DNA from: a virus
Taxonomy: Duplodnaviria > Heunggongvirae > Uroviricota > Caudoviricetes
Strand: one strand, 5' to 3'
IMG/VR virus record: IMGVR_UViG_3300037400_003300
Coordinates: 16,273 to 80,272 of that record
Length of the DNA stretch: 64,000 nt
The stretch's first letter is position 1. Every line of letters begins with the position of its first letter. Positions 17,836 to 37,599 of this stretch are shown piece after piece. The position numbers were made by a program, and so were the translations under genes. The notes below the pieces were generated by a model. That model saw nothing but the letters and a program-made list of their open reading frames with translations. It did not search any database and was not told the DNA's origin.

Positions 17836-17867
17836 ATGTTCATAAGCGGTAGAAAGAGGGAAGCAAA

Positions 17868-19814: not shown

Positions 19815-19819
19815 AATAA

Positions 19820-19856
19820 AAGCTGCTTGAGTAAATCTCAAACAGCTTTTTATATT
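19820..19856. terminator. bidirectional terminator between convergent genes
   Basis: AGCTGCTTGAG-TAAAT-CTCAAACAGCT hairpin followed by a T-run. Confidence 0.45.
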
Positions 19857-20985: not shown

Positions 20986-21003
20986 GTTTTAACCTTCTCT
21001 CAA

Positions 21004-21342
21004 TTACTTTATGTATATTGCAACGGTATGATTTTCTTCATTCTCATTAAAATCATCAACGATACAATCATAGTGATCTTGATTTAATTCGTATCTTGTC
21101 TCATTCTTATAGATATACACTCTTTTCTTAAGTTCATCATATGAATATGCTTCGAAATAATTGAATTCGAGATAATGTACAAGTACAGTCCTGACATCAA
21201 TAGTACCAAAACGAAAAGTCATATTATCACCGTCTCCATAGTATACATCAAAGTTGGGAAGATGATCTTTTAATGTTTTGATAATAACATCCCAAGACTT
21301 ATCGTTACAGTTTTCAGCTTCAAAATTTACTTCATTTATCAT
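21004..21342 (-). CDS. hypothetical protein
   Basis: ORF track; conserved AGAGGTTTAAAAAT-ATG start context. Confidence 0.4.
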   Translation of the reverse strand: MINEVNFEAENCNDKSWDVIIKTLKDHLPNFDVYYGDGDNMTFRFGTIDVRTVLVHYLEFNYFEAYSYDELKKRVYIYKNETRYELNQDHYDCIVDDFNENEENHTVAIYIK

Positions 21343-21372
21343 ATTTTTAAACCTCTCTTTTTCTATAAAAAT

Positions 21373-21663
21373 TTATTCGCTATCATTTGATTCGATAATT
21401 TCTGCATCAAGTCCGTAATATTGGGACTTTTCATGGAGTTCTTTTTCGGCTTCTGCTTTTGTTTCAAAACCTTCGCTATAGATATATCTAGCTTTATTGA
21501 ACACATAATATTTTTTCATTTTTGTATCGTCAACAATATTCCAGCCTTCTTTTTCTATTTCTTCATTCGTGAAATATGCATGGAGTTGTTGTTCTGCTTC
21601 CTGAATGTTTTTCGCATAGGAAAATTCCATGTATTCACTATTATCATTTATTGCATAGAACAT
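21373..21663 (-). CDS. hypothetical protein
   Basis: ORF track. Confidence 0.4.
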   Translation of the reverse strand: MFYAINDNSEYMEFSYAKNIQEAEQQLHAYFTNEEIEKEGWNIVDDTKMKKYYVFNKARYIYSEGFETKAEAEKELHEKSQYYGLDAEIIESNDSE

Positions 21664-21672
21664 ATTTTAACC

Positions 21673-22005
21673 TCATATTTTTACTGAAATAGCATTATTA
21701 AGATTATTAGCAATTTCCATTAGAGTATCTTTTGCCTCTTGGCAGTCATCAAGTAATTCCCTGATCGAACTAGGGACACCGTTTTCGCCTCGCATATTGA
21801 CATAAATTTCAACCTCAGCATCAACATCATAATTCTCTGCGTATGCAGTAAACTTATCAACAAGGTTTTCAACAGTCCCGTCATAATCAATTTCAACCGG
21901 AATATCCTGGCCGGCTGTATCGGTCCAAAATTCAATAAGTGCAGAATCCTTTTTTATTTCATAAGATATTCCCATATTATCTAAAACTTCTTCAATTCTT
22001 TTCAT
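21673..22005 (-). CDS. hypothetical acidic protein
   Basis: ORF track. Confidence 0.4.
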   Translation of the reverse strand: MKRIEEVLDNMGISYEIKKDSALIEFWTDTAGQDIPVEIDYDGTVENLVDKFTAYAENYDVDAEVEIYVNMRGENGVPSSIRELLDDCQEAKDTLMEIANNLNNAISVKI

Positions 22006-22039
22006 ATTATTTACCCTTGTTTTTAACCTCTCTCTTTAT

Positions 22040-22336
22040 TTAACAACCTATAACTTGTCTTACAACATTCTTAAGCATAACCTCATACTTGTGCCAGTCA
22101 TCATCTGTGGGTTGAATAGTGGAATACTTCACAAAATCCATTCCAAAAATACCTAATGCGTTCTGATCTAACCAATGCCATAGACTGTTTCTATTAGCAT
22201 TGGTAAGTTTTATTCGCAGATCGGTTGTAAAACCATTACAAAATCTAATTGCTTTTATTGCCTCATTATCAAGTGTAATTTTAAAATTATCCTTATCAAC
22301 ACTAGCTTTCATTAGTAACCTCATTTCTTTATACAA
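22040..22336 (-). CDS. hypothetical protein
   Basis: ORF track. Confidence 0.4.
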   Translation of the reverse strand: MYKEMRLLMKASVDKDNFKITLDNEAIKAIRFCNGFTTDLRIKLTNANRNSLWHWLDQNALGIFGMDFVKYSTIQPTDDDWHKYEVMLKNVVRQVIGC

Positions 22337-22566
22337 TCTCTATTTGCTGCCACTTCATCTGGATAAAAGATTTCTACAATGGTGGTGTACGACTCATTAA
22401 GCAAGTTAGCAAGCTTGAAAATAAAAGCTATTTCTATTTTCTGGCGTATGCCATTAACTCTTTTATTCATGTTAGGATAATCGATTTTACTTTGAAGGCA
22501 AAAATCGCGTAGTGAAGTGTAACCTTTTTTCTTTAATAAAGCATTGAACATTTCTTTTGTTGACAT
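22321..22566 (-). CDS. XRE/Cro-like HTH regulator
   Basis: KGYTSLRDFCLQSKIDYPNMNKRVNG...IEIAFIFKLANLLNES. Confidence 0.5.
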   Translation of the reverse strand: MSTKEMFNALLKKKGYTSLRDFCLQSKIDYPNMNKRVNGIRQKIEIAFIFKLANLLNESYTTIVEIFYPDEVAANRDCIKK

Positions 22567-22614
22567 TGTTTTACCTCGCTATGTTATTTTGTACCATTGT
22601 ATCACCTATCAGAA

Positions 22615-22833
22615 TTAATTTCTACATTCATTTGATCGAATTAAATCAATTAATTCAGTTGCTTTTTTATATTCTGCGGACTCAATATCCCAGTTCCAGT
22701 CTTTTCGCATTTCTATAAGATTATAGAGAATATCTGAAATAGACATATCACTATGAATACTATCACGGTCCGCAGTCTCAAAAGGATCTACAAAGTCCAA
22801 AAACTCAATATACTTTGTATAAATACTTGCCAT
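22615..22833 (-). CDS. hypothetical protein
   Basis: ORF track. Confidence 0.35.
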   Translation of the reverse strand: MASIYTKYIEFLDFVDPFETADRDSIHSDMSISDILYNLIEMRKDWNWDIESAEYKKATELIDLIRSNECRN

Positions 22834-22837
22834 ATCT

Positions 22838-23296
22838 TTAACCCCATTCCGCTTCTTTCATTTCCGGCATACGCCACACAATGTTATTTGTTATAGCTAT
22901 TTCAAGTTCCTTTAATGCCTTAAATAAATCAGTCTTAATAGTAGAATCCTCGCTAACCTGATAAATATAGCAAGAGAGTGTCTTTAAAAGCTGATATTCC
23001 CAAGGCTGCGGCGCTTTTTCAGTATCAATCGGATGATATAATGTCTTATAATCTTTTGGCATTTCAACATCAATATCACAGTCGGCCTCATAACGGTTAT
23101 TAAATGCAGCCACATTAAATGCATAAAGCTTTTTGAATATTTCCTTTGTAGGTGTAGAATGGTAGCCAAGGTTAAGGGCCTCATTTAACAATCTTGGAAT
23201 AGAATATCCAAAATAATCATAACCAAAATCATTTAATGTCTTGATATAGTCCGCAAGGCCGGCGATCACTTCTTCTTTCATAATAAAACAACTCAT
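22838..23296 (-). CDS. hypothetical protein
   Basis: ORF track. Confidence 0.45.
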   Translation of the reverse strand: MSCFIMKEEVIAGLADYIKTLNDFGYDYFGYSIPRLLNEALNLGYHSTPTKEIFKKLYAFNVAAFNNRYEADCDIDVEMPKDYKTLYHPIDTEKAPQPWEYQLLKTLSCYIYQVSEDSTIKTDLFKALKELEIAITNNIVWRMPEMKEAEWG

Positions 23297-23347
23297 TTTT
23301 AACCTCTTTTCTTATGTTTCCAGGGGCCTTGCCCCCGGAAAATATAT

Positions 23348-24280
23348 TTATTTTACGATTTCTTTTATTTCTGCATAGGAAACTTGGCCTTGTATTGGCG
23401 TTCCGTCTGCATATACCATATGCTTTTCCAAAAATTCAAATGTTATATTTTTGCTGCCGCCTCTCAAATAGCGTACATTGCCCCACTTTTCAACATTGAC
23501 GATCATTCCTTTTTTCAATGATTTACGATCAATTATTCCGCCTTGCTGCTGGATAAGCGCGTCATAATATGCGGCCTTCTCAATGTTTGTTTCAATTATT
23601 TCCATAGCATTGTCAATATACTTGTTATATTTGTCGCTATCGTCGGGATACTTTTCGATCATTTCTTTATAGTATTCAACATTGCGATTTTGTGCGCGAA
23701 TAGTCTTTTCCGCATCGTCAATACGACGTTGACAAAATCCCTTGGAAGGAATCTCTTTTGCCTGCCTTGCAATTTCCGCACGCTGCAAATAATATTCAGA
23801 CTTGCGAAATTCCTCAAAACCTTTTTCATAGCTTGCCCACATTCTATTGCGTTTATTAGTAAAGGCCCGGCCAGCAGATGTATTAATGTTCGGTTGCGTA
23901 AAAAATGCTATATCACCATGCATACTATTTATCGGCGCTTGCAATTGTTCGGCGCGTTGTTCGGCTTTTTCTGCCTTGTATTTGTAGCGATCGGCCCGGC
24001 GTTCTGCCTTCTCAATGCGCCTGTTTTCTTGGTCCTCAAATGACAATCTTTCGCCGATGGTTCCTTTATTCTCTAAACCTAAATTCAATGCGATTTCGCG
24101 CGGTCTATAAAGATGTGGGAACTTGCAACGACTAATCCATGCAGCAGATCGACGACTAAAAAGGAAATTACTTTTAATTGCTGATTTGTCGTCATTAGAT
24201 AATGACATATATTTTTCCTTGTCGAAATGCAATTCAATTTTTCCAGTTTCCTTGTTTTCAATAAAATAATTTTCAGACAT
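23348..24280 (-). CDS. hypothetical coiled-coil protein (start of CpG-rich island)
   Basis: ORF track; KAEKAEQRAEQLQ coiled coil. Confidence 0.45.
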   Translation of the reverse strand: MSENYFIENKETGKIELHFDKEKYMSLSNDDKSAIKSNFLFSRRSAAWISRCKFPHLYRPREIALNLGLENKGTIGERLSFEDQENRRIEKAERRADRYKYKAEKAEQRAEQLQAPINSMHGDIAFFTQPNINTSAGRAFTNKRNRMWASYEKGFEEFRKSEYYLQRAEIARQAKEIPSKGFCQRRIDDAEKTIRAQNRNVEYYKEMIEKYPDDSDKYNKYIDNAMEIIETNIEKAAYYDALIQQQGGIIDRKSLKKGMIVNVEKWGNVRYLRGGSKNITFEFLEKHMVYADGTPIQGQVSYAEIKEIVK

Positions 24281-24295
24281 AATAAACCTCTTTTC

Positions 24296-24505
24296 TCATA
24301 GATATGAATAAATAAAATTATCAATAGCAACAGAGTCTTTTTTATTTAAAAGATCCTGTAATATATTTGCTTCTTTTGCGGTTATAAGTCTTTTCACACG
24401 TTTAAAGCCATTGGCATATACGTTATTAAATCTATTATATTCCGCATATATTCCAGTCTTTTCTTTTATCAATTTAAGATTTCGATCAATAACTTTTCCT
24501 GGCAT
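24296..24505 (-). CDS. hypothetical protein
   Basis: ORF track. Confidence 0.35.
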   Translation of the reverse strand: MPGKVIDRNLKLIKEKTGIYAEYNRFNNVYANGFKRVKRLITAKEANILQDLLNKKDSVAIDNFIYSYL

Positions 24506-24511
24506 ACGTTT

Positions 24512-24874
24512 TCACCCCTCTATATATTCTTTTCGATAGCTATTCCATGTATCCAATAGCCATTTAATATCACTACCAAAAGTACATTCATTGTCTATTA
24601 CGTCACCCGCGGCGTCAATAGGGCAATTCCAGTCCATATCATAGTCGCACTGCATTATAGAATTGCGCGGCTGCATTGCGATCTTACCAAACAATGTATA
24701 ATCGCCGGTATTTTCATAGTCCATGTAAGCAAAACAAACTGCATACAGATTGTCATTATCCCTAAATAGCGGGCAAAACCACGTACCGGAATAGTCTTTT
24801 GTCGTCAATGCTTCTTTTGCGACGTTCATAACATTATCAATCATTGCTTTTTCTTTTAATTCTCTATAAATCAT
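24512..24874 (-). CDS. hypothetical protein
   Basis: ORF track. Confidence 0.4.
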   Translation of the reverse strand: MIYRELKEKAMIDNVMNVAKEALTTKDYSGTWFCPLFRDNDNLYAVCFAYMDYENTGDYTLFGKIAMQPRNSIMQCDYDMDWNCPIDAAGDVIDNECTFGSDIKWLLDTWNSYRKEYIEG

Positions 24875-24890
24875 TTTTCAAAACCTCTTT

Positions 24891-25631
24891 TCATGCCGGT
24901 ACTTTGTCAATACCATTTACTTTTAATAGGTTGATAAAGTCCGGAAATGTTTTATTTTCCAGTATTTTTTCAACCCGTGTTTTTAGTTCGAGATCGACAA
25001 TTTCAATAGCCTCTTTAAAACTTCCATTAAAAGAAGCACAAGGCAGGCCGCAACATGGTACAATAATATGCTTTAATCCTTTTATTTTGGCGTCGGCCGA
25101 TACAATCCAGGTTAATCCGAACTTATTAAAGGCTTTAGCGTTATAATCAATAGCAAGTTGATCGCGTTTAATCATTTTATATGCAATTGCTTTTTCAAGT
25201 TTTATTTGTGTTTCAATATCCAGACGACTGACATTAAAGTTATCAATTAAAATATCATTCAATTTATTTAGACGTGTAAACGCGTCAGAAACACCGGATA
25301 AAACCTTTTTATCGTATGAATAAACCTTTTTTGTATGATTAAGATCGTCTACCATAGCAACAAATATAGAATGCAATTTTTCCGCTTTTTCTTTTCCATT
25401 AAGATCGTCAATTAGCATAGATACGACTTTTTTATAATCAATTAGCGAAAATTTACATATCAAGTTATAAAGTTTTATTTTGAAATATCCTTTTCCGGAC
25501 TTGTATTCTATTTCAATATATTTATCATTTGCATTTTCCAGGCAATCAATTAATAATTCGTTGTTTGCGTAGGTGTATGCAATTTCTAATTGTGTTCTAC
25601 TCATGTTTAATACCTTCTTTCCAGTGCTCAA
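24891..25631 (-). CDS. hypothetical protein
   Basis: ORF track. Confidence 0.45.
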   Translation of the reverse strand: MSTGKKVLNMSRTQLEIAYTYANNELLIDCLENANDKYIEIEYKSGKGYFKIKLYNLICKFSLIDYKKVVSMLIDDLNGKEKAEKLHSIFVAMVDDLNHTKKVYSYDKKVLSGVSDAFTRLNKLNDILIDNFNVSRLDIETQIKLEKAIAYKMIKRDQLAIDYNAKAFNKFGLTWIVSADAKIKGLKHIIVPCCGLPCASFNGSFKEAIEIVDLELKTRVEKILENKTFPDFINLLKVNGIDKVPA

Positions 25632-25885
25632 AAATCATAAATAAATGAATACATGACTTCCATATCTGAAATACACGGTGTTTTATTCATTTCATTTATA
25701 AAATTTATGTGTTCTGAAAAATCATTATCTGAAAGTTTGCAAGCTTCTTTTGCTTGTAAAACAATCAAGTCATTTAAACTTTTTCCATGTTTTTGTAATG
25801 CGAGATTATTTAATTCTTTTTTCAGATCGTCGTTTACGTCAAAAAATTTAATGTATGCATTTAATAAAGAATTGTATTTATCCAT
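25628..25885 (-). CDS. hypothetical protein
   Basis: ORF track. Confidence 0.35.
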   Translation of the reverse strand: MDKYNSLLNAYIKFFDVNDDLKKELNNLALQKHGKSLNDLIVLQAKEACKLSDNDFSEHINFINEMNKTPCISDMEVMYSFIYDF

Positions 25886-25904
25886 TTTTTCACTAAACCT
25901 TTTT

Positions 25905-26378
25905 TTATATTGAAATTTTTAGTAATGAATCATTGTATTGATCGCCGTATTTATCAATTATCTTTTTCAGCTTGTAATTAAGCATTTTATGCATAGAATC
26001 ATAAATACCTTTTACATGATATTCATGTATTAAATTTTCACATTCTGTTATAGATTGATCGCGGTAAAAATAATAATTTTCCGCAGCGGCTTTATTTTCT
26101 GACGTTCTAATTGCCAAATAGTAGTTGTATTTATTAGTTACGTAATTAAAGCGGATATTAGAACGGTGAAAAATATCAAGGTTATAACGCTTTACATATT
26201 TTTGTATTTTGTCAATTTCTGCGCGCAGCGGATTAATATCTGTATTTTCCAGCATTATTTCTGCGGCTGTATATGTATAGCCGGGCGCGTTGTAAAAATA
26301 GTGTTCGTCGCCATATATATTCAATTTGTATGTATAGTTATTCTTTTTTAGATAATTGCACAATGTTTCAATAGTCAT
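25905..26378 (-). CDS. hypothetical protein
   Basis: ORF track. Confidence 0.4.
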   Translation of the reverse strand: MTIETLCNYLKKNNYTYKLNIYGDEHYFYNAPGYTYTAAEIMLENTDINPLRAEIDKIQKYVKRYNLDIFHRSNIRFNYVTNKYNYYLAIRTSENKAAAENYYFYRDQSITECENLIHEYHVKGIYDSMHKMLNYKLKKIIDKYGDQYNDSLLKISI

Positions 26379-26393
26379 GTTTTTAACCTCTTT

Positions 26394-26810
26394 TTAAAAA
26401 TTCAATAGATAATATTCTTTTATTAGCTCGATTTTTTCCGGCGTCTTTTTCCCGGCTAAACTATTAATCAATTCAATTTGTTTTTGATATGATGTATAAT
26501 TAAATATTTCATCCAAAATACGCGAGTAGTTATGATTAAAATCATATCGATCAATAGTTAATGCAATATTCAATCTATCAATTGTTTTTTGTTTGTGATT
26601 CCTGGCGATATTTTCAATTTTTATCATTGCATCGGCTGGAATATATCCGGGCCGGACAAATAATTTTATATTTCCGGCCGGTGATATATGCGCAACTTTT
26701 TTATAGTCGCCGTGATCATACACGGCGCTATTACATACCGTTGCGCCGTTTCCGAAATAACCAACGAATAGTTCAAATTTTTCCATGTTTAAAACCTCTT
26801 TAAATCGCAT
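26394..26810 (-). CDS. hypothetical protein
   Basis: ORF track. Confidence 0.4.
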   Translation of the reverse strand: MRFKEVLNMEKFELFVGYFGNGATVCNSAVYDHGDYKKVAHISPAGNIKLFVRPGYIPADAMIKIENIARNHKQKTIDRLNIALTIDRYDFNHNYSRILDEIFNYTSYQKQIELINSLAGKKTPEKIELIKEYYLLNF

Positions 26811-27735
26811 TTAATCGCGTGTAAATGTCGTTATACTCATTCATAAAGTTATCAATAGACTTGTATTCTTTATTTTTATCGCTATTTTCCAGACGTTCAA
26901 AACTTCTAAAAATGCCTTCTATACCGTGAAAATAATCAAGTTTTTTATTTACACTAGCAATATCCGCCGCCGTTGTTGCTTCCACTAACATATTAATGAC
27001 ATTGTTCTTTTTATCCAGAATTGCAGCTTTTAAAGCTTTTATTTTGTCGGTATTATCAATACATATATATGCATTTTTTGCTTTTTCTGCGCGTAAAATT
27101 GCAGCCCTGCGGCGTAAAGTCTCGCGACGATACATAAGTAAATAGCCGGATTTATCTATTAAAGAATTAATATCCATAGTATTGTATCTATATGTATCAA
27201 GTTGATAGGTTAATCCGTCATTGTCGGTTGTCTGCATGTTTAATGAATAAATGCATTTTTCTGTGCTATTATAAGGTGTGTTAACTTGTGCTTTTAAAAG
27301 CTTTAAACGCTGCATAGAATCTATATTTTTACGCGCTGGAATGCTTAAAAAGTCCCTATTTTGACATATTACAATAGTGTGTGTGGCGTTTTTACGGACC
27401 GATTCAAAATCCGACTTTGTATAAAATGTATCAAGTGATACAAATTTATTGTTATTGTATCCAGTTGAATTAATGTCTTTTTCCATATTTCCACTAGGAT
27501 CAAGGACCGCAACGCGATAATTTGTACAATACGCCGTGTTGGACCGGGTAAGCATTACAAAAATATCTTTTTTAGGTGTATAGCCGGCAGCGGCTTTTAT
27601 AATCTGATTTATTGTAAATTTTCCCGCTATGTCAAAAATATAATAGGGCTTTATAAAATCCAGGCCTATGCAGGCATGCAAACTTTGCAAAATTCTTTTA
27701 TTTTCTTTTAATAAGCTATGTAATAATGTATTCAT
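26800..27735 (-). CDS. hypothetical protein
   Basis: ORF track. Confidence 0.45.
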   Translation of the reverse strand: MNTLLHSLLKENKRILQSLHACIGLDFIKPYYIFDIAGKFTINQIIKAAAGYTPKKDIFVMLTRSNTAYCTNYRVAVLDPSGNMEKDINSTGYNNNKFVSLDTFYTKSDFESVRKNATHTIVICQNRDFLSIPARKNIDSMQRLKLLKAQVNTPYNSTEKCIYSLNMQTTDNDGLTYQLDTYRYNTMDINSLIDKSGYLLMYRRETLRRRAAILRAEKAKNAYICIDNTDKIKALKAAILDKKNNVINMLVEATTAADIASVNKKLDYFHGIEGIFRSFERLENSDKNKEYKSIDNFMNEYNDIYTRLNAI

Positions 27736-27739
27736 ATGT

Positions 27740-27949
27740 TTAAATCCCTTCTTTTTTTAATATTTTGGTTGTACGATCTTTTAAAATTTGATTGTATTTA
27801 TTTATTGCGTTACCGCGTCTAAAATACCACGGGCTTATTTGTTGCGAAAATCCGCAACCGGTCCGGACCATAACGCAAAATTGATTAATTTGTTGATTGT
27901 CTTTTATAACGAAATATGGAAAAGACTCTTTTATAATTTCTATGCGCAT
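27740..27949 (-). CDS. hypothetical protein
   Basis: ORF track. Confidence 0.3.
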   Translation of the reverse strand: MRIEIIKESFPYFVIKDNQQINQFCVMVRTGCGFSQQISPWYFRRGNAINKYNQILKDRTTKILKKEGI

Positions 27950-27952
27950 TTT

Positions 27953-28273
27953 TTAGCCCCCCATTATTAAATCTAAAAAACTTTTTTCAAGTTCTGCGGC
28001 GGCTGTATAACGCGCAGTAACATTAAATATATATTTATAGTCACTTAAATCAGCAAAAATTTTACTATAGAGACGGGCCCCGGCGACGGCGACGGGATAA
28101 AAAGCATTAATAGCTTTTTCCCTAGAATAATTTCCGCGTTTAAAATATCTATTTAAGTTTTTACAAATAGGAATAATATATTGATCGTATAAATCCGCGT
28201 TGTTTTCGATAAAAAGTGATAACTCGCGGGATTCCGTTGTGTTATTGATATACATGTTTTTTGTCTTTTTCAT
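27953..28273 (-). CDS. hypothetical protein
   Basis: ORF track. Confidence 0.4.
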   Translation of the reverse strand: MKKTKNMYINNTTESRELSLFIENNADLYDQYIIPICKNLNRYFKRGNYSREKAINAFYPVAVAGARLYSKIFADLSDYKYIFNVTARYTAAAELEKSFLDLIMGG

Positions 28274-28276
28274 AAT

Positions 28277-28471
28277 TTACCCCTTTATAAATCCAGTATT
28301 TAATATTGTTAATAGTTCCTTTTTTGATACATTTGTAAGTTTGATTTTTTTAACTGGATAATTCCAGTTAACAGCGTTAAAGACTGGAATATATCCGAAT
28401 ATTTCAAAATTTTGAATTATAAAATCCGTGTTATATCTCTTTAAAATAGTGGCTATTTCGTAAAGATTCAT
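28277..28471 (-). CDS. hypothetical protein
   Basis: ORF track. Confidence 0.35.
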   Translation of the reverse strand: MNLYEIATILKRYNTDFIIQNFEIFGYIPVFNAVNWNYPVKKIKLTNVSKKELLTILNTGFIKG

Positions 28472-28762
28472 GTTTTTAACCTCTCTATAATTGTTATATT
28501 GTACGTTGTTGTTTTGTACTTGATAATGTAATTATATTACTATATAAAATTGTTGTCAAGTACCATTTTTAAATTTTTTAAATTGTTTTTTAATCCAGTA
28601 TTTATGCGGGTTTACAAGGATCTTTACAAATTGACGATAAAAATATTATTGATTGACGTTTAAAAAGTGTGTACACTATTATTAATAAGTAAATATTGAA
28701 TGTTAAGGGATAAACGGCCCGCATTCTTTTTCTATTGTGAAAAGTTTGCGAGTCGTTTTTAA

Positions 28763-29479
28763 ATGCCAGGGACCGGAAAAATGAATATTGAAAATATAGT
28801 AAAGAATACAATTAAAAATACAGATACCGCCGGCGGCGGGAAAATTGACGATCTTTTGCAGCATGAAATATTAACCGATGATATAAAAAATGAAATTTTT
28901 GAATGCTGGAAAAATGATCTTGATATCTATATTGACAACTACGCACAGACAAGTCCAGATATTAACGCGAATAAAGGCATGTTTAAATGTAGCTTGGAAA
29001 CTTGGCAAGCATGCGCTAGTGATATAGGCCGGAATTACTTCTTTAAAAATAGATACTTAATAGATAAAAAGAAAATAGCCGCGCAGGGCGGCGGGACAAT
29101 ATACCGTGATGATCTTTTATTAATCGGCCTGGAATTATATGAATATTACTGTAATTTGTTTAGAAAACAATTTTTTATTTATGATTGCACGCGGTTTTTA
29201 GGAATATCAAAAGAAGTGTTATATAGATTAAATACATTGCACAGTGACTTGCTAAAAAGGGCCCACACAATTCAAGAATCCAGCATGCGCACAGCATTGG
29301 CAAGCGGCCGCAGCAATGTTACTGCTATAGCAATACTATTAAATCACGATTACAACTATACAAGGACAACCGAAATAATACATAGTAGCGATAGAATTAA
29401 ATCAGCCGATACATTGCCAGTGCTTAAAATTGACGATATACCAAACAATGAAATTAAAAGATCGAGTGAAAACATGTAA
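28763..29479 (+). CDS. hypothetical protein
   Basis: ORF track; divergent from the minus-strand cluster. Confidence 0.45.
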   Translation: MPGTGKMNIENIVKNTIKNTDTAGGGKIDDLLQHEILTDDIKNEIFECWKNDLDIYIDNYAQTSPDINANKGMFKCSLETWQACASDIGRNYFFKNRYLIDKKKIAAQGGGTIYRDDLLLIGLELYEYYCNLFRKQFFIYDCTRFLGISKEVLYRLNTLHSDLLKRAHTIQESSMRTALASGRSNVTAIAILLNHDYNYTRTTEIIHSSDRIKSADTLPVLKIDDIPNNEIKRSSENM

Positions 29480-29527
29480 AAAGTGCACTGTTACGGCGTT
29501 TTCAGGGCTGCAAACATCCGTTTACAA

Positions 29528-29553
29528 TTGCGTAAAATTGTAATTTTGCGAAA
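29528..29553. promoter_or_regulatory. imperfect inverted repeat TTGCGTAAAATT-GT-AATTTTGCGAA upstream of RHH operon (possible operator)
   Basis: dyad symmetry ~190 bp upstream of the first RHH gene. Confidence 0.25.
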
Positions 29554-29746
29554 AAGAGTCAATCAACACGGCGTAGGGGTTCCGGGCCGATGAAGGCCAC
29601 CCCCAGGCTTAGCCCCTCAGTCACCGAAAAAACAAAAGAGGGTAATACAAACCGCACAACCATGCAGGTTAACCAATTTTCATCATGAAATAAAAAATAG
29701 GCCAAAAATGCTGCAAACCTAGTTAACTTCTAAAGGAGAGGGGATT

Positions 29747-30118
29747 ATGGCAGAGAAAAAGGTAATAGGAATAAAAGTTGGAGCAGAAGATTATAGAAGA
29801 TTAGAAATCATTGCAGACCGAGAGAACATGAGCATTTCAGCGATTTTAAAACTTTGTGTGAATGCAATTATCAATAATGAGATAGAGCTAGAGAAAGGTG
29901 AGCTAAAGCTAGGAGTTAACTACGTTTGCGAGGATTTAGACACACCATTTGGGGAGAAAGTAGAGCGAAAATTAAACAAACTACGTGAGAGGGAGTATCC
30001 GGAGTGGTATATCGAAGCGCTGAAAGAGCAGATGTTAACTAGCTTTGACGCACAAATAGAGATGTTACCGAAGAAATTCAACCCAAAAAGAATGCGAAGT
30101 GATGATTGGGGGTGCTGA
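29747..30118 (+). CDS. ribbon-helix-helix DNA-binding protein
   Basis: IGIKVGAEDYRRLEIIADRENMSISAILKLCV RHH pattern; AGGAGAGGGG RBS. Confidence 0.5.
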   Translation: MAEKKVIGIKVGAEDYRRLEIIADRENMSISAILKLCVNAIINNEIELEKGELKLGVNYVCEDLDTPFGEKVERKLNKLREREYPEWYIEALKEQMLTSFDAQIEMLPKKFNPKRMRSDDWGC

Positions 30119-30120
30119 AG

Positions 30121-30372
30121 ATGCCAACGAAAGATTCCATGATAAAGACCGCAAGGATCACGCAGGAAACCTGGAGAAAGATGGAAGCATACATGGAGAG
30201 GGAAGATGTGACCTTCTCAGGAGCAATAAGAAAGCTGGTCGAGGAAGCGGACATACCGAAGCAGCGTAGGGAGTTTGTAGACACGAAAGAGCTGGTAGAC
30301 CTCTGTGAAAGAAGGAATATCGAACCACAGACACTAATAGATGGGCTTGTAAGGGAGTTAAAGAGGGGATGA
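30121..30372 (+). CDS. ribbon-helix-helix DNA-binding protein
   Basis: KTARITQETWRKMEAYM...SGAIRKLVE. Confidence 0.5.
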   Translation: MPTKDSMIKTARITQETWRKMEAYMEREDVTFSGAIRKLVEEADIPKQRREFVDTKELVDLCERRNIEPQTLIDGLVRELKRG

Positions 30373-30539
30373 GTAGTAGTAAGACACAGACAAGAACCAT
30401 AAGGATAAAGAATGAGACAGCGGATTTCTTCAGAGACAAGCCACTTAACAAAGTAGTTGAGAACGTGCATGACCTGGCACTAAAGAAAGACATAGAGGTA
30501 TGTGAGAATGGGAAAATTTCTATACTCAGTGGACGGTGA
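30369..30539 (+). CDS. ribbon-helix-helix-like small protein (contains the protospacer)
   Basis: RTIRIKNETADFFRDKPLNKVVENVHDLALKK; hand-translated. Confidence 0.4.
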   Translation: MSSSKTQTRTIRIKNETADFFRDKPLNKVVENVHDLALKKDIEVCENGKISILSGR

Positions 30540-30864
30540 GCATTTTGAGGAACTTGGGCATGTATCGGATATAGAGCTTAGTGCTGAAGAGGAAGAGGTA
30601 GCCGAGAGATTTTTTACGCCAGATACGATTGAATTAACTATGCAAGCGCCAGAGTTAAATATGGACGGATTGGTTCGCAGCATGCTTGGCCAAAGTGCGT
30701 ATAACTCGATAAAACTTAGGCAAGACGGGTATTTAAGCCCTGAGAACGGGTGGTTCACACCAGTTGAGAGTCCGGCGATAAAACTTATTGAAAAAATAGA
30801 CAAAGAGAGGAGAAGGCATGACAAAGAAAGAGAGAGAAGCACTAAATCAGGCATTGAAGAATGA
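30502..30864 (+). CDS. hypothetical acidic protein (the gene whose RBS/start region matches spacer 1)
   Basis: ORF track; GTG 30502 or ATG 30508 start after AGAGG. Confidence 0.45.
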   Translation: MRMGKFLYSVDGEHFEELGHVSDIELSAEEEEVAERFFTPDTIELTMQAPELNMDGLVRSMLGQSAYNSIKLRQDGYLSPENGWFTPVESPAIKLIEKIDKERRRHDKERERSTKSGIEE

Positions 30865-31012
30865 GTTTTTAGATCAGGACGAAGCTGAGATGCGAAAAGG
30901 GTACAGAGAATTTGCAAGGCAGCTTCAATTAGCGCAGGAAGAAATGGGGCTTACAAGATATGAGGCAATAATATTCCTGTCAACCTTGATAGGGAATAGT
31001 ATGCATAAATGA
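30818..31012 (+). CDS. hypothetical protein
   Basis: ORF track. Confidence 0.35.
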   Translation: MTKKEREALNQALKNEFLDQDEAEMRKGYREFARQLQLAQEEMGLTRYEAIIFLSTLIGNSMHK

Positions 31013-31139
31013 AAAATAACAGCGCCAAGAATTTTCGTAGCTACAGGATGTGAAGCCCTTACGAGGGAGCAACCTCATGGAGAGGAGATATGTTGTAGTG
31101 AGCTTTAGACGGATGGCGCACCTAAATAGGAGGATGTAT

Positions 31140-31547
31140 ATGGACACAAGAACTATCAACGAGCATTATGCCGAGATAGGTGCTGAGCTTATTGAGAAGG
31201 AAGAAGCACTTGAAGGCATAAGAAACAGCACTGCGACCATCATTTATCTGTCTAGTGAACACAAAAAGACGGGAAATGGGAAGGTGGTCAAGGCACAGTG
31301 CGAAAAAATCTCCGACAAGTACAAATGGGGGATTCCATGTGACTTCACGATAACGGTTTTTGAGCCAAATTGTGAAGGAATGACCGAGGAACAGATGAAA
31401 ATGCTTATTTTCCATGAGTTATTGCATGTAAAGATAAGCTACAAGGATGACGGAACGGAAGTTTTTGGTATTAATCCACATGATCTTGAGGATTTTAAGC
31501 TGATTATTGACAGGTTTGGCACAGAGTGGGCGGAGGTAAAGGAATGA
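31140..31547 (+). CDS. HExxH (SprT-like) putative metallopeptidase-domain protein
   Basis: AGGAGG RBS then ATG at ~31140; FHELLHV motif. Confidence 0.45.
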   Translation: MDTRTINEHYAEIGAELIEKEEALEGIRNSTATIIYLSSEHKKTGNGKVVKAQCEKISDKYKWGIPCDFTITVFEPNCEGMTEEQMKMLIFHELLHVKISYKDDGTEVFGINPHDLEDFKLIIDRFGTEWAEVKE

Positions 31548-32494
31548 TAGCATTTGTTATTGGTATTATTGCTACTATCGTGGCATTTTTCATACTTGGA
31601 ATTGATTTTGATGAAGTAGATTTTATGTGGGAGCCAAAGAAAAGGCAGGTGTTTTCGCTTATAGGACTGATTATATGTCTTTTAGGCTTTATAAAGACGG
31701 TTCCGACAGGTTCAACCGGTATCGTAACAACATTTGGTAGGATCGAGAACATTACTTTGGATGCGGGCATACATTTTATGGCACCTTGGAAGAAAGTAGT
31801 TAACATGGACAACCGGACACAGAAACAGTCCATAGAGATGCAGTGCTTTAGTTCAGATATTCAGGAAGTAAGCGTTATATACACGGTAAATTACCAGATA
31901 AACAAAGCAAATGCGCAGGAAATCTACAGGACGATAGGAAAAGAGTATTTTGACAAGATAGTAATGCCAAAAGCACTTGAAGCAGTAAAGTCAGTATTTG
32001 CCAAGTATACGGCTGAGGCGCTTGTAGCATCAAGAGCAGGGCTTTCAAAAGAGATTGAAGCAGTGCTTGTGGATGATCTTAGCAAGCAGAATATACAGAT
32101 CACTGCAACATCTATTGAGAACATTGATTTTACCGATGCTTTTACAAATGCAGTTGAAGCAAAGCAGGTAGCTGAGCAGAACAAGTTAAAAGCACAGACA
32201 GAACAGGCGCAGGCAACACTTGAAGCACAGGCACAGGCTGAAAGACAGGTAATAAAAGCCCAGGCAGATGCAGATGCGTCAATTCTTGCAGCAAAAGCAG
32301 ATGCAGAGGTTGCAAAGATCAGTTCTGACAGCGCACTTTACCAAGGCGAGAAGGAAGCATCCATTTTACAGAGAGTTGGAGAGCAGCTTGCGAAATATCC
32401 TGACCTTGTAAAGTACAAATACATTGAAGGCTGGGATGGCAAGATGCCACAGACAATACTTGGAAACTCAGATGTGATCATGGATATGAGGTAA
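31526..32494 (+). CDS. SPFH/Band-7 (stomatin/prohibitin-like) membrane protein
   Basis: N-terminal TM helix, SPFH core, Ala/Gln-rich coiled-coil tail. Confidence 0.65.
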   Translation: MGGGKGMIAFVIGIIATIVAFFILGIDFDEVDFMWEPKKRQVFSLIGLIICLLGFIKTVPTGSTGIVTTFGRIENITLDAGIHFMAPWKKVVNMDNRTQKQSIEMQCFSSDIQEVSVIYTVNYQINKANAQEIYRTIGKEYFDKIVMPKALEAVKSVFAKYTAEALVASRAGLSKEIEAVLVDDLSKQNIQITATSIENIDFTDAFTNAVEAKQVAEQNKLKAQTEQAQATLEAQAQAERQVIKAQADADASILAAKADAEVAKISSDSALYQGEKEASILQRVGEQLAKYPDLVKYKYIEGWDGKMPQTILGNSDVIMDMR

Positions 32495-32498
32495 AAAA

Positions 32499-32813
32499 AT
32501 GGCAATACCGACGTATGGACCGGGCGTACACAGATTAAAGATTGAGCCAATGGACATAGGACATGCAAGGGTAAGCATTGATGACACGGTAGTACGCGCA
32601 AGCAAGGTAGACGTACATATGGAAGTTGGTTCGATGCATCAGGCGGAGATAACACTTCTTGGTCAGCCTGAGATGGACATTGACTCGTTAATTACCTTTG
32701 ATTTTAGTCCAAAAACTGTGAAAAGAGCAGTTGATGTGCTTAAGATAGCGCTTAGAAAGAATGACTTTATCGCAAGATTAGGTCTTGAAGAGTTAAATAA
32801 TTTAGAGCGGTGA
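32499..32813 (+). CDS. hypothetical protein
   Basis: ORF track. Confidence 0.4.
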   Translation: MAIPTYGPGVHRLKIEPMDIGHARVSIDDTVVRASKVDVHMEVGSMHQAEITLLGQPEMDIDSLITFDFSPKTVKRAVDVLKIALRKNDFIARLGLEELNNLER

Positions 32814-32923
32814 GAAGGATAAAACCTTTTCATCGTATTAGCCGGGAGGCAGAGTTCGACGGAGCAAGGAACACCACTCTCTGACAAAAGTGGGCGGATC
32901 TGCAATAAAAAGAAAGGGAAGGT

Positions 32924-34687
32924 ATGGCTTCTAATGACCTTATCAGAGCATTTGAAGGCTATAAAACATATTATGACAATCATGGCGCAGATGAAGCGCT
33001 TATAAATGCCTGTGTAGAAGCTGCAAAGACCGCTTTTTTTATTGAAAAAGATGAAAAATACGGGTTAGGCATTACAGGAACGACTAAAAACTACATAAAT
33101 GAGCTAGTTCTGACTAAGACTGGCGCGGGATTCTTTGATCTTGAGAGATATGCGATAGCAAATGATACAGAGTATACCATCATCAATACCGGTTACGACA
33201 TCTATAGGCTAGAGTCTTTCTCAAGATTTGAATCGTACATGCACTACATCGAAAGGGACAGGAGACAAGAAAAACGTTTTTACCTTCCGAGAAGATGTAC
33301 TTTAGGGATAGTAGCAAATGATATGCAGCGTTTGGAAGATGATGAACTTGATGTTTATGGACTTAGTTTACCATCAAGAACCGGTAAGAGTTCAATCTGT
33401 ATCTTCTTTCTTACATGGGTAGGAGTACGAAAACCAAACAGCCATAATGCGATGGGTGGGCATTCTGGACAGCTTGCAAAGAGATTCTACAGAGGTCTTG
33501 ATAACATAATCGAAACACCGGATTACCGATACGATGAAGTGTTTCATTTATGGAATCCTGAATACCGAGCAGTCTTACAGGCAAAATCATCAGATCCAGC
33601 AGAATTTACACTTAATCTGGGTTCACCTGATGAGTTTTCAACCTTTACATGCCGAGGAATAGACGGAACATGGACGGGTGCTATCGATGTATCTTCAGAT
33701 GGTTACTTATACGTGGATGACCTCATAAGAGACAGAGAACATTCACTTAGTCCATCACGAGTTGAAAATACTTATCAAGAGTATCAGAACAAGATGCTTG
33801 ACCGTATGAATGACGGTGCGAAAAAGATGCTTGTCGGTACTTTATGGACAGTAAATGATCCGCTTGAGCGTGAGAGAAAGGTAAATGATGGCAATCCAAG
33901 GGCATTGTTCAGGAAGATACCTGCTCTTAACGAAAATGATGAGAGTAATTTCCAATACACGGTCAAAGGATTTTCTACTGAGTATTACAAGAACATGCGA
34001 GACAGGCTTGATAAGGCTGAATGGATGGCAAAATTCCAGCAACAGCCATTTGTCAGAGAAGGTCTTACGTATCCTATCGAGGAACTGCGGTTTTTTGATG
34101 GATTTTTACCGGTTGGAAACTGTTCGACTATCGCACACATAGACGTTGCTTTTGGTGGTGGAGACAGGTTATCAATGCCGATATGTAAGGATTTTGGCGA
34201 AGAAAAGAAGTATATCGTGGGCTGGATACATGATAGCCGTTCACCAGGATTTACGGTTCCAAGAGTAGTTGATGCGATTGACAGATACTACATAACAAAG
34301 CTTTACATAGAGAAAAACTCAGGTGGACAGCTCTATGCAGATAAAGTCTCAGAAGAAATGAAGAACAGAGGAATAAACCACTGTAAGATTGAGCTTTATT
34401 CCGCACCTAATAAGATTTCAAAGAATGACAAGATAAGCGGATATTCAGATTATGTAAAACGCAATTTCTTGTTCTTATCGGCTAAAAGCCGTGATATTTA
34501 CGAGGAAGATATAGATTTTTATAAGCAAGATGCCGACTACCGCAAGGCATTGGACGAGATGACAACATTCAGTATTGAGGGAAAGGGAAAGCAGTTTGAT
34601 GATTCACCGGATTCCATCTCTTCACTTGCTATGAAGATGGATAACAGGCGGTCAACAAAAGCAAGGATAATGAGTTCACCATTATGA
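32924..34687 (+). CDS. terL: terminase large subunit
   Basis: Walker A-like LPSRTGKSS; VDDL; C-terminal nuclease-like IDVAFGGGDR; 587 aa. Confidence 0.8.
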   Translation: MASNDLIRAFEGYKTYYDNHGADEALINACVEAAKTAFFIEKDEKYGLGITGTTKNYINELVLTKTGAGFFDLERYAIANDTEYTIINTGYDIYRLESFSRFESYMHYIERDRRQEKRFYLPRRCTLGIVANDMQRLEDDELDVYGLSLPSRTGKSSICIFFLTWVGVRKPNSHNAMGGHSGQLAKRFYRGLDNIIETPDYRYDEVFHLWNPEYRAVLQAKSSDPAEFTLNLGSPDEFSTFTCRGIDGTWTGAIDVSSDGYLYVDDLIRDREHSLSPSRVENTYQEYQNKMLDRMNDGAKKMLVGTLWTVNDPLERERKVNDGNPRALFRKIPALNENDESNFQYTVKGFSTEYYKNMRDRLDKAEWMAKFQQQPFVREGLTYPIEELRFFDGFLPVGNCSTIAHIDVAFGGGDRLSMPICKDFGEEKKYIVGWIHDSRSPGFTVPRVVDAIDRYYITKLYIEKNSGGQLYADKVSEEMKNRGINHCKIELYSAPNKISKNDKISGYSDYVKRNFLFLSAKSRDIYEEDIDFYKQDADYRKALDEMTTFSIEGKGKQFDDSPDSISSLAMKMDNRRSTKARIMSSPL

Positions 34688-36048: not shown

Positions 36049-37599
36049 ATGGGCGGTAGGAAAAAGATAATGACCGATGTTCCGGTCGTTACTGCTGAAA
36101 ATATAATATCGATTATTCAAAAAGCAATCGGAGACCATAAAGAAAACGCTGCTAAGATACAGGAATTATTTGATTTTGAAGAGGGCTTTCAGCCACTTCA
36201 AAGAGTGAAGGTGTATCGAAGCGATATTGATATAGATGTGACTGATAACGTAGCTAATGAGATTGTTGAGTTTAAAGTTGCTCTAAACTATGGAAATCCT
36301 ATTTCTTTTAAGAAACGTGGATCTGTAGATGGGATGATTGAAGCAATCGAGATGTGGAATGACCAGTATTTCCTTACGGATTCAGATTCAAGCAATCAGG
36401 AACTTGCAAGAGATTTTGAAATCTGCGGTATTGGAAATGTTTTTATTGATATAAATACTGATTATGAGGAAGGCGATTCTTACTACACAAGAACAATCTT
36501 AAATCCAAGGACTTCATTTGTTATTTACTCATCATATTACTATGACCGCAGACCGATGGTAGGTGTAACGTTCCGTAAAGATTCAGATGGAGTAACGCAT
36601 TACACGGCATTTTCTAAGGATTTCAGATTTGAGATAAAGTATTGGATAATCCAGAATCCGGGGAAAGAAGATGAACCGGTCTGGGCGCATGAGGATAGGA
36701 GTGGAGAAGTAAATCCACTTCATGCGATACCTATTATCGAATATTTTAGAAGTTATGACAGAATGGGATGCTTTGAAAGGCAGATTCCCGCAATGAACAA
36801 CCTTAACCTGCTTGTTTCTGACTTCTCGAATGACGTAGACCAGAACACACAGGTTGTATGGTGGGCAAATGATTGTGAGTTTGAGACCATACAGGTTGTA
36901 AATGAGGATGGGACTGTTACTGAGCAGGTAAAACATCCAAAATCTAACGAATGGCTTCAGACATTTACAACAAGAGATGGCAAGATACCGAAAGTTCAGC
37001 CACTTATCGTTAATTACGATTACGCGGGAATGCTGAATAATTATATGTCTCAGAGAGCATTGATACTCCAGAAGTGTAATGTGCCTCAGAGAAATGATAA
37101 TTCCGGAGGAAGCACAGGTGTTGCAATGAGTGATGCTACCGGATGGAGTGCAGCTGATATTGCGGCAAATAAAGAGGAAATGATTATCTCTAAGAGTATC
37201 AGACGGGAGATAAAAGTTATCTGTGCTGCGATAAGAGAAAGCGCATGTCCTTTGGACAGTCCACTTAGAAAGATTAAGCCATCCGATATTGAGCCAAGCA
37301 TAAAGAGACAGAAGAATTATGAACTTTCAGTAAAGACAACGGCAATATCTAATCTGATTAATATTGGATTCAGTCTTGAAGATACGCTTGATGCTGTACC
37401 ACTGTTTCCAGATCCGGCACAGGTTATTGAGCGAAGTAAAGAAGGTGTGGAAGCATATCAGAAAACAAAACTTAAGCAATCCGAAAAGAGTGAAGAAAAA
37501 GAAGCAACGCCCGGTTCAGACGATCCCATATATCAGATTGAGAACAGCCCTAATATAGATGGAATGAACACAGATAATGGCGAAGAGGATGAAAATTGA
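36049..37599 (+). CDS. portal protein
   Basis: 516 aa; position between terminase and head-morphogenesis genes. Confidence 0.65.
   Translation: MGGRKKIMTDVPVVTAENIISIIQKAIGDHKENAAKIQELFDFEEGFQPLQRVKVYRSDIDIDVTDNVANEIVEFKVALNYGNPISFKKRGSVDGMIEAIEMWNDQYFLTDSDSSNQELARDFEICGIGNVFIDINTDYEEGDSYYTRTILNPRTSFVIYSSYYYDRRPMVGVTFRKDSDGVTHYTAFSKDFRFEIKYWIIQNPGKEDEPVWAHEDRSGEVNPLHAIPIIEYFRSYDRMGCFERQIPAMNNLNLLVSDFSNDVDQNTQVVWWANDCEFETIQVVNEDGTVTEQVKHPKSNEWLQTFTTRDGKIPKVQPLIVNYDYAGMLNNYMSQRALILQKCNVPQRNDNSGGSTGVAMSDATGWSAADIAANKEEMIISKSIRREIKVICAAIRESACPLDSPLRKIKPSDIEPSIKRQKNYELSVKTTAISNLINIGFSLEDTLDAVPLFPDPAQVIERSKEGVEAYQKTKLKQSEKSEEKEATPGSDDPIYQIENSPNIDGMNTDNGEEDEN

Follow-up and report, generated by a model that had tools for sequence, protein, structure and literature searches.

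The window analysed here, a stretch of 64,000 nucleotides (nt) from the tailed-phage record IMGVR_UViG_3300037400_003300 of IMG/VR (positions 16,273 to 80,272 of that record), is a phage-plasmid that carries a CRISPR-like array attached to a gene for a TnpB-derived protein, and the leader-proximal spacer of this array is identical over its 30 nt to a site at the head of the late operon of the element itself. The reading that we favour, if only by a modest degree, is that of a binding-only type V-like system, resembling Cas12m and TldR, which serves conflict among related phage-plasmids and in which the self-match is tolerated as collateral; the self-match itself is probably incidental and not a designed regulator. 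The features on which this reading draws are as follows, in coordinates of the window.

15226-15576, plus strand: gene for a Cro/CI-type helix-turn-helix (HTH) protein of 116 amino acids (aa), matching Pfam HTH_3 (1.3e-13) and PHROG transcriptional repressor/regulator families
15569-16735, plus strand: gene for the TnpB-derived effector, 388 aa, RuvC residues D / D / H, with Pfam HTH_OrfB_IS605, OrfB_IS605 and Cas12f1-like_TNB
16746-16909, plus strand: guide RNA scaffold of the right-end element RNA (reRNA) or omegaRNA type, also the array leader, made up of a 5' hairpin, a RAGATH-18 core, a 3' part and a clade-specific extension
16910-17338, plus strand: CRISPR-like array of seven well-formed 36-nt repeats (CTTTTAGAAGTATGTAATTTTGCATAGATGTAAAGC) with spacers of 26-31 nt
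16946-16975, plus strand: spacer 1, the leader-proximal, self-matching guide, absent from a contig (L013/L094) with otherwise the same array and backbone
17012-17042, plus strand: spacer 2, with a 31-nt match in the relatives L048, L049, L054 (1 mismatch) and L047 (2 mismatches)
17207-17236, plus strand: spacer 5, matching the minus strand of L003 61-90 with 3 mismatches, in DNA absent from the window
17339-17838, plus strand: decayed trailer of about ten degenerate repeat remnants (...GATGCAAAGC), conserved in relatives
28763-34687, plus strand: head of the rightward late/packaging operon, with the target, comprising a 238-aa open reading frame (ORF), three ORFs resembling ribbon-helix-helix (RHH) genes, and genes for a phage metallopeptidase, a Band_7 protein and the large terminase
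30474-30503, plus strand: protospacer of spacer 1, inside the third small RHH-like ORF (30369-30539) and over the AGAGG ribosome-binding site (RBS) of ORF 30508-30864

The window contains two exact copies of the sequence of spacer 1, CTGGCACTAAAGAAAGACATAGAGGTATGT, one at 16946-16975 and one at 30474-30503, each on the plus strand; no further match was found in the window at up to three mismatches, and two copies arose in none of 100 dinucleotide shuffles. The 30-nt match described in the initial annotation is therefore real, except that the spacer end was placed one base too far, 16976 being the first base of repeat 2. With the last base of the repeat included (C16945 = C30473) the identity reaches 31 nt, and it breaks off sharply at either end, the array copy being flanked by 36-nt repeats and the target copy lying in ordinary coding DNA. 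More than ten relatives without such a spacer keep the flanks of the target, which makes the target the ancestral copy and the spacer the derived one. Segmental duplication is ruled out by flanks that diverge at once and by the ancestral state of the target, and the earlier interpretation as a spacer-protospacer pair, with an array attached to a TnpB-like gene, stands. Among the window's eight readable spacers, aligned to the window at up to 25% mismatches, spacer 1 alone finds a match.

The effector aligns over its full length with the TnpB of ISFba1 (8iaz_A, 1.7e-67, residues 1-379) and also with that of ISDra2, and its three Pfam domains all score above cut-offs. The RuvC-I Asp is retained (GVDLG), the RuvC-II Glu (E278 in ISDra2, E290 in ISFba1) is replaced by Asp (ICIDDL), and the catalytic Asp of RuvC-III (D361 in ISDra2, D371 in ISFba1) is replaced by His (IDIHKQAALNL). 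A database search placed the protein in a tight clade of 15 full-length clusters (P0001-P0015) with 77-99% identity, the next TnpBs reaching at most 62%. Throughout this clade, referred to here as the dead clade, the RuvC-III residue is His (13 of 15 clusters) or Asn (the other two) and the Arg that precedes it has become Ile or Val; the RuvC-I Asp is found in all members, and RuvC-II has Glu in four clusters and Asp in the rest. The equivalent of Lys83, which reads the target-adjacent motif (TAM) in ISFba1, is Gln across the dead clade, whereas the outgroup keeps both the Lys and a D/E/D triad. In ISFba1 TnpB the mutation D371A abolished cleavage and interference (PMC11061315), and Cas12m proteins whose triad is H-D-D or N-D-D are DNA binders that do not cut (PMC11013384). 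Pairwise dN/dS values of 0.04-0.10 among six members, at dS of up to about 2, show that the gene is under strong purifying selection and not decaying. From these comparisons the effector is very probably a domesticated, binding-only TnpB, and the suggestion in the initial annotation that targeting might be non-destructive gains plausibility from a clade that lacks the very Asp needed for cleavage in ISFba1 TnpB. The gene for the Cro/CI-type HTH protein overlaps the start of the effector gene by 8 nt, an arrangement repeated in L014, L030 and L031, so that the two are probably co-transcribed; L032 has a 91-aa ORF without a Pfam match in place of the HTH gene. The upstream partner is thus not a MerR-resolvase, and no IS607 serine recombinase is associated with the effector in the window.

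Downstream of the effector gene lies a scaffold whose core is recognized by the Rfam model RAGATH-18 (RF03064) at 16771-16839 (64.7 bits, gathering score 44.9); at permissive thresholds Rfam gave RAGATH-18 only and no CRISPR-DR family. RAGATH-18 forms the core of the reRNA that guides IS607-type TnpBs (PMC11061315) and is also present in L001-L003 and in canonical relatives. The scaffold is shared with canonical insertion sequence copies (L004, L005, L035, L036) up to ...TTTTCAGTAACGG, after which these copies diverge from one another at once, and this point is the start of their single guide. Members of the dead clade have a conserved 33-nt extension there (16877-16909), which replaces TAACGG and the guide and consists of a GGGA-loop-TCCC hairpin with a variable loop, TTGCATCT and AATTTGAC; the first repeat follows directly at 16910. 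An array is found 3' of the scaffold in every dead-clade locus examined (the window, L001-3, L013, L025-30, L032, L045, L047 and L055), whereas none of the intact TnpB homologues is followed by one.

The scaffold's 5' hairpin (16746-16761) has the loop AGCTGG, and its stem is kept through compensatory changes (CCGA/TCGG, CTGA/TCAG, CCGGA/TCCGG, CCGAA/TTCGG) in comparison with L004/L005/L035/L036. In ISFba1 the loop of this hairpin pairs with guide-adjacent bases to form PK2 (PMC11061315). The loop of the canonical copies, UACGUUAG, is complementary to the guide-adjacent UAACG, and in the alignment the dead-clade loop AGCUGG can pair with UCAGC at 16872-16876, which suggests that the pseudoknot was re-made in the dead clade. 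How the guides of an array might join the scaffold allows two possibilities: in trans, through pairing of TTGCATCT with AGATGYAA of the repeat, or in cis for the first spacer only. The pairing hypothesized for the first of these rests on an 8-nt complementarity between TTGCATCT (16890-16897) and AGATGYAA in the 3' part of the repeat, which most repeat variants retain via wobble pairs only, the leader side being invariant, and RNAduplex scored the repeat against the scaffold no better than it scored shuffled repeats. When the rest of the window was searched for an anti-repeat of the tracr type, the only result was a chance-level match of 17/22 within the HTH gene.

The repeats themselves are structured, with a 6-bp hairpin (columns 11-16 with 21-26) that is 92% paired across 11 variants from six lineages; three pairs have changed on both sides, and none of 500 shuffles reaches the score. 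Their 5' CTTTTAGAAG and 3' AAAGC are invariant. In the trailer the remnants are irregularly spaced at 17-90 nt, two units showing a 28-nt period (17568-17623), and comparable remnants occur in L001 (12001-12440) and L003 (11541-12090). Anchored seed matching of 19 repeat-adjacent "guides", decayed ones included, returned spacer 1 and one chance-level 11-mer (17632 versus 13036); beyond this 11-mer, nothing in the window was matched by the conserved trailer units.

Spacers are still being added to the array, which continues to turn over. A contig assembled from a different sample (k141_1839334, loci L013/L094) encodes an effector protein identical to that of the window and is 99.985% identical to window positions 17043-30614 (2 mismatches in 13,572 nt), with the same target and target flanks. 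Samples in which this strain occurs are ENA ERZ27256908 and SRA SRR12668996 and SRR9036511. Its array begins at the window's spacer 3; spacers 3-8 and both array flanks are identical, and spacers 1 and 2 are missing. Two genomes that are otherwise identical thus differ by spacers 1 and 2, either as the most recent gain of one or as the most recent loss of the other, and since L094 has the same target and lacks both spacers, spacer 1 is taken as the newest. More generally, related arrays have their trailer-end spacers in common and their leader- or gene-proximal spacers unique. The initial annotation had named the absence of the match elsewhere as a sign of recent acquisition, and this is what was found; its premise of a stably maintained replicon found no support. 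Exact-protein look-ups of spurious ORFs running through spacer 1, which would have revealed contigs with the same array, found none on record. No Cas1 or Cas2 family was detected among the window ORFs scanned (not all small ORFs being included) or in precomputed Pfam lists for about 20 kb around ten relatives (L030, L032, L045-L054). Spacers are presumably acquired by machinery acting in trans, by analogy with the plasmid-borne type IV-A3 systems, which obtain theirs in this way (bioRxiv 10.1101/2023.06.23.546257). Recruitment of the nearby tyrosine recombinase for the task is ruled out, as it is not adjacent in L032. Within single arrays, repeated spacers or spacer pairs also occur (L001 11379/11773; L027 3269/3400 and 3335/3466; L028 1498/1564), which points to internal duplication or recombination of array units.

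The protospacer of spacer 1 covers codons 36-45 of the 56-codon ORF 30369-30539, the AGAGG at 30494-30498 and the GTG at 30502. It had been described as spanning the end of the third RHH gene, the RBS and the GTG/ATG start of the next gene, and this description is accurate for the end region of the RHH-like ORF, the AGAGG and the GTG, whereas the ATG at 30508 lies 5 nt past the match. The equivalent of that ATG is what gene callers choose as the start of the next ORF in relatives, and the GTG is too near the RBS. All three small ORFs have RHH-like N termini, a Pfam RHH match being confined to the second and weak (E 0.006). The cluster stands 1.7 kb into a rightward operon, with the target 2.4 kb upstream of terL; this operon has a divergent intergenic region (28472-28762) before it and continues into terL, and its 238-aa ORF gives a weak GP3_package match in relatives. 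The same intergenic region holds, on the minus strand at 28531-28559, a perfect sigma-70 consensus (TTGACA-17-TATAAT) directed toward the leftward gene block.

The target lies at the 3' edge of a block of about 900 bp (29607-30507) that is 93-100% identical in all ten of the relatives aligned. It is exact in L017/L020, L047 and L051, and other relatives differ at no fewer than 3-4 positions. Right after 30507, L045-L054 switch to alternative versions at 55-90% identity, so that a recombination junction coincides with the 3' end of the target.

The array is transcribed together with the plus-strand effector gene and scaffold, and its CRISPR RNA (crRNA) has mRNA sense; it can therefore pair with the template (minus) strand of the DNA only and not with the RBS on the mRNA. 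Occlusion of the RBS at the RNA level, and with it the block to translation that the initial annotation had considered, is ruled out on this ground. For proteins of the Cas12 type the orientation of the guide puts the TAM-proximal side toward the oncoming RNA polymerase, and dCas12a roadblocks are effective when they pair with the template strand with that side facing the polymerase. Spacer 2 runs the other way relative to its own target gene, and no strand rule is evident.

Sixty unique spacers from 13 distinct arrays were compared with about 0.7 Mb of family DNA. Protospacers were found for three of them (spacers 1, 2 and 5), all from the array of the window. Aligned to the window and to relatives, as the initial annotation had proposed, the spacers gave a window match for spacer 1 alone and matches in relatives for all three, and no other self-match was found among the 60. 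The window has no counterpart of the leftward gene in which spacer 2 finds its target, and L047 carries both this target and an exact target of spacer 1. No spacer against the spacer-1 site is present in any of the 12 other arrays, including those of L032, L045 and L047, which hold both an array and the homologous site. A search of INPHARED with 21 concatenated spacers gave no match, and in IMG/VR no exact protospacer turned up for spacer 6, for spacer 2 or for spacer 1 of L001. The ancestral TAMs of this TnpB lineage are AGGAG or GAGGG (PMC11061315), neither of which is present in the 5' flank of the spacer-1 target (CATGAC; GTGCATGAC). Spacer 6 (17273-17302, TGATTTCATAAAAAAGACATATGAGGATTT) has the 9-mer AAAGACATA in common with spacer 1, in register, and GAGG after a 1-nt shift, and could have been acquired earlier, from the corresponding site of a divergent relative; on the other hand, L002 and L055 have a decayed repeat similar to its 3' part, ATATGAGGATTT, and a homologous site bearing the sequence of spacer 6 was not found.

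These observations can be joined into a tentative mechanism, in which an IS607/RAGATH-18 TnpB would have been domesticated by keeping its scaffold, losing the RuvC-III Asp and gaining an array at the former position of the single guide. New 30-nt spacers would enter at the scaffold-proximal end through trans-acting machinery, and the guides would direct the protein to bind, and not to cut, the DNA of related phage-plasmids, where it may block transcription or replication in the manner of Cas12m and type IV systems. Spacer 1 would have its source in the near-identical core of about 900 bp at the late operon head and hence match competitors and carrier alike: since the block is conserved across the family, a spacer taken from it in a competitor will often match the carrier. 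Such a self-match may survive because the effector does not cleave, and its effect would at most be a roadblock of the CRISPR interference type on the element's own late operon, which should be silent anyway in the plasmid-prophage state. Nuclease inactivity, DNA binding at the self site, repression there and the source of the spacer are all what we infer from sequence comparison.

Several observations weigh against this reading. With targets for three of 60 spacers, competition with relatives rests on few cases, and the relatives were compared over 20-34 kb in most instances, so that they may have self-matches elsewhere. The 5' flanks of the three protospacers (ATGAC, GGCCC, CGTAT) and their 3' flanks have no common motif, and no TAM can be derived from them. 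An Asp two residues upstream of the substituted position (ID-I-H) is retained near RuvC-III, and D-D-H is a working triad in some enzymes of the RNase H fold, such as the PIWI domain of Argonaute. The location of the site at the head of the late operon, a guide directed to the template strand and an effector encoded in one operon with a CI-like HTH protein would all fit a selected function. Finally, a contig from the Logan assemblies (L095, SRR12668996_63839) is 100% identical to window positions 18967-30502 and ends at 30502, one base before the 31-mer common with spacer 1 would be complete, and L014, from the same sample, stops at 16939, 30 nt into repeat 1. The Logan assembly graph has k=31, and ends that resemble de Bruijn breaks at repeats suggest that arrays with spacer 1 are present in that sample.

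The most interesting residual possibility is silencing of the late operon in the plasmid state, to which location, orientation and the operon shared with a CI-like HTH gene point. As a selected autoregulation, the self-guide would be an RNA-programmed repressor of the late operon that, like CI, maintains lysogeny and immunity against homologous superinfecting phages. In its strongest form the newest spacer, which alone would share a transcript in cis with the reRNA scaffold, would let the dead TnpB, co-expressed with a CI-like repressor, clamp the late operon head of the element itself and of incoming relatives, a rewritable, RNA-encoded repressor of lysogeny and homoimmunity. Were this so, a protein of the size of an IS607/RAGATH-18 TnpB would have become a CRISPR effector independently, with an array that grows without cas1/cas2 on the element. 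A target within the first 1.7 kb or so of the operon, upstream of terL, template-strand pairing with the polymerase meeting the TAM-proximal side first, an effector predicted not to cut whose gene overlaps that of a Cro/CI-type protein near the Rep3/ParA/recombinase module, and the end of L095 exactly at 30502 would fit such a role; yet spacer 1 is absent from the 99.985%-identical L094 with the same target and from 12 other arrays, three of them at loci with the homologous site. It occupies the newest position of the array and not a conserved one, its neighbours, spacers 2 and 5, match non-self DNA, and the conserved trailer units have no window target. We therefore regard autoregulation as unlikely, and give its more elaborate form, the clamp on own and incoming operons, the same low standing; a conserved or selected self-regulation, as the initial annotation had envisaged, does not agree with the distribution of the spacer.

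If the effector were still a nuclease, or the site simply not engaged, the self-match would be harmless only because the 5' flank has no TAM, and the absence of AGGAG and GAGGG from the flank would agree with this, as would a RuvC-I Asp in all members and a RuvC-II Glu in four clusters. The case is nonetheless a doubtful one, with even less to recommend it, as the RuvC-III Asp is replaced by His or Asn in every member and the preceding Arg is lost too, Lys83 has become Gln clade-wide, which makes it unlikely that the ancestral TAM applies, and the three protospacers have no flank motif in common. A chimeric assembly, with the array of one strain joined to the backbone of another, has some initial appeal for a window that is probably metagenomic, in a mosaic family whose related strains co-occur in samples, arrays being classic sites of assembly collapse. 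However, L094, an independent assembly of another sample, joins the array from spacer 3, the 13.6-kb backbone and the target with only two mismatches, and its spacers 3-8 and array flanks are identical; any donor of spacers 1 and 2 must therefore have been an extremely close variant of the same element. A chimera is accordingly quite improbable, being unlikely for the linkage of array and target and possible for the two-spacer segment itself. Least probable of all is an orphan mini-array that serves a Cas effector of the host, as in some prophages, with the TnpB-like gene a mere neighbour. Repeats of 36 nt, spacers of 30 nt and the lack of cas1/cas2 on the element would be in keeping with this, and the repeat bears a loose likeness to those of type II-A (GTTTTAGAGCTATG...; about 23 of 36 positions identical), a lead more than a test. 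Against it, all dead-clade loci have an array that begins where the reRNA scaffold ends, which no locus with an intact TnpB has, and a search of the rest of the window found neither an anti-repeat nor a tracr-like element. Among 185,579 species-representative genomes neither a match to the repeat pattern nor an array built on it was found (the pattern required the leading C, so that host repeats of the GTTTTAG type would escape it), the repeat found only partial, chance-level matches in PLSDB, and a cutting host effector would make spacer 1 lethal.

Set beside systems already described, the locus combines properties that are otherwise found apart. The closest characterized protein is the TnpB of ISFba1 (PDB 8IAZ; Cell Res 2024, PMC11061315), with homology over the full length (388 versus 387 aa), a RAGATH-18 scaffold downstream of the gene and the guide 3' of the scaffold; it differs in its RuvC-III Asp and Lys83, both replaced here, in the IS607 serine recombinase, of which none accompanies the gene in the window, and in its single guide, instead of which the window has a 33-nt scaffold extension and an array of several spacers. 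The window protein thus departs from a TnpB in having D / D / H and not an intact RuvC D-E-D triad, and from a single-guide transposon in its HTH gene upstream, the extension and array downstream and a fixed syntenic position. TldR proteins are likewise of TnpB size, with an inactivated RuvC, a retained guide scaffold and an association with temperate phages, and by this likeness the expected action would be the blocking of transcription through DNA binding (Wiegand et al., bioRxiv 10.1101/2023.11.30.569447; later papers of the Sternberg laboratory). A TldR, however, relies on a single guide, fixed and conserved, whose target is a conserved promoter of the host (fliC, oppA), whereas many variable guides, differing even between genomes that are 99.985% identical, are directed here against phage-plasmid DNA, and the effector belongs to a TnpB lineage independent of TldR. 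Inactivated TnpBs have also been described (PMC10691335).

Cas12m, or type V-M, similarly unites an array with a RuvC-impaired effector in the absence of adaptation genes and is enriched on plasmids and prophages (Mol Cell 2022; NAR 2024, PMC11013384). It interferes by binding, as a roadblock to transcription or replication, a likeness that would extend to the present system by analogy. The substitutions also run parallel, with H or N at one catalytic Asp and a change from E to D at RuvC-II, although the catalytic position is RuvC-III here and RuvC-I there; Cas12m is moreover larger, at about 600 aa, carries additional REC elements and works without a long scaffold RNA. At E <= 0.01 the protein matched 13 PDB sequences, with TnpBs as the best and no Cas12m chain, in a searched set that should include such chains. 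TranC effectors (cited in bioRxiv 10.1101/2025.09.28.678669) are proteins of 300-600 aa that use CRISPR arrays and mark a transition from TnpB to Cas12; they are described as active nucleases, unlike the dead clade, and LaTranC (PDB 9JFO) matches the C-terminal third of the effector only (2.9e-13). Type IV-A3 systems (bioRxiv 10.1101/2023.06.23.546257; PMC11656645) are borne on mobile elements, free of nuclease and of an adaptation module of their own, and carry spacers against relatives; matches to self or host are tolerated and targets repressed rather than cut. Their effector is a multi-subunit class 1 complex with DinG and is unrelated in sequence.

More broadly, a TnpB/Cas12-family effector beside regular repeats, polarised turnover and spacers 1, 2 and 5 with matches in phage-plasmids are what a type V locus displays, whereas the adaptation genes, optional for many V-U, V-F and V-M loci, were not found, and the conserved self-match that would mark regulatory self-targeting spacers is lacking. 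The V-U24 group, which has a non-canonical RuvC-I and an HTH neighbour (PMC10691335), could be related to the dead clade; no published description of the dead clade was found. The best-supported reading is that of a functional likeness to Cas12m and type IV systems and a protein state like that of TldR, reached from an independent origin in an IS607/RAGATH-18 TnpB. The ingredients are individually known, and their combination, a reRNA-scaffolded 388-aa protein with a dead RuvC-III and an array that turns over, in the maintenance module of a phage-plasmid, appears to be new.

Should binding without cleavage hold, the window would encode a natural RNA-guided binding protein of 388 aa from a well-characterized and editable TnpB lineage (ISFba1-like), a compact natural counterpart to dCas scaffolds. 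The lineage would have exchanged, independently and on phage-plasmids, the single guide of a transposon for an adaptive CRISPR array, and would offer a live view of the transition from TnpB to type V together with the loss of nuclease activity, of which TranC, TldR and Cas12m each show a part. The self-match would illustrate what binding-only immunity permits, and two genomes that are 99.985% identical and two fresh spacers apart make it possible to test directly how spacers are gained when the element has no cas1/cas2 and what self-targeting by a non-cutting effector costs.

The family to which the window belongs consists of mosaic phage-plasmids from ruminant and gut metagenomes, on contigs of 60-126 kb, and the locus of effector and array is found at a fixed syntenic position across it. 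No family member was found in INPHARED or PLSDB; BLAST of the effector and array region against INPHARED phages gave distant TnpB matches only and that of the target region no match, and the effector protein found only canonical IS607 TnpBs in PLSDB, with at most 53% identity. The window's phage and plasmid genes include the following.

7741-8559, minus strand: ParA-type ATPase
9547-10767: Rep3 initiator
18798-19814: tyrosine recombinase
19855-20985, minus strand: FtsK-like ATPase
32924-34687: large terminase TerL (phrog_38, 1.4e-40)
36049-37599: portal

Rep3 and ParA thus stand alongside terminase, portal and tail genes, and the window also holds a gene for a Mu-F-like protein and a 1639-aa ORF of tape-measure size. 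A second tyrosine recombinase (Phage_integrase, 1.4e-28), distinct from that at 18798-19814, lies at 42788-43867 in the middle of the structural gene block. The only member of the dead clade among species-representative genomes, L055 (JAFYHY010000145.1), is a 39-kb contig in a metagenome-assembled genome of 'Aeriscardovia sp.' from water-buffalo abomasum, and such binning is unreliable evidence of host for a phage-plasmid contig.

L047 has an extra TnpB of 418 aa (OrfB_IS605; 1522-2778) about 0.9 kb downstream of its array, and L050 and L052 have insertions of MerR and TnpB (IS607-type) downstream of the portal and Mu-F genes; canonical IS607 elements therefore invade the same phage-plasmids. 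A BrnT/BrnA toxin-antitoxin pair, absent from the window, lies between the terminase region and the portal in L046, L048, L052 and L053, some 6 kb beyond the first RHH gene in the downstream direction. On unrelated large phage contigs with intact TnpB homologues there are four tRNA matches, a RAGATH-33 RNA and a group I intron (L005 15458-19440 and 17082-17194; L004 13421-13773).

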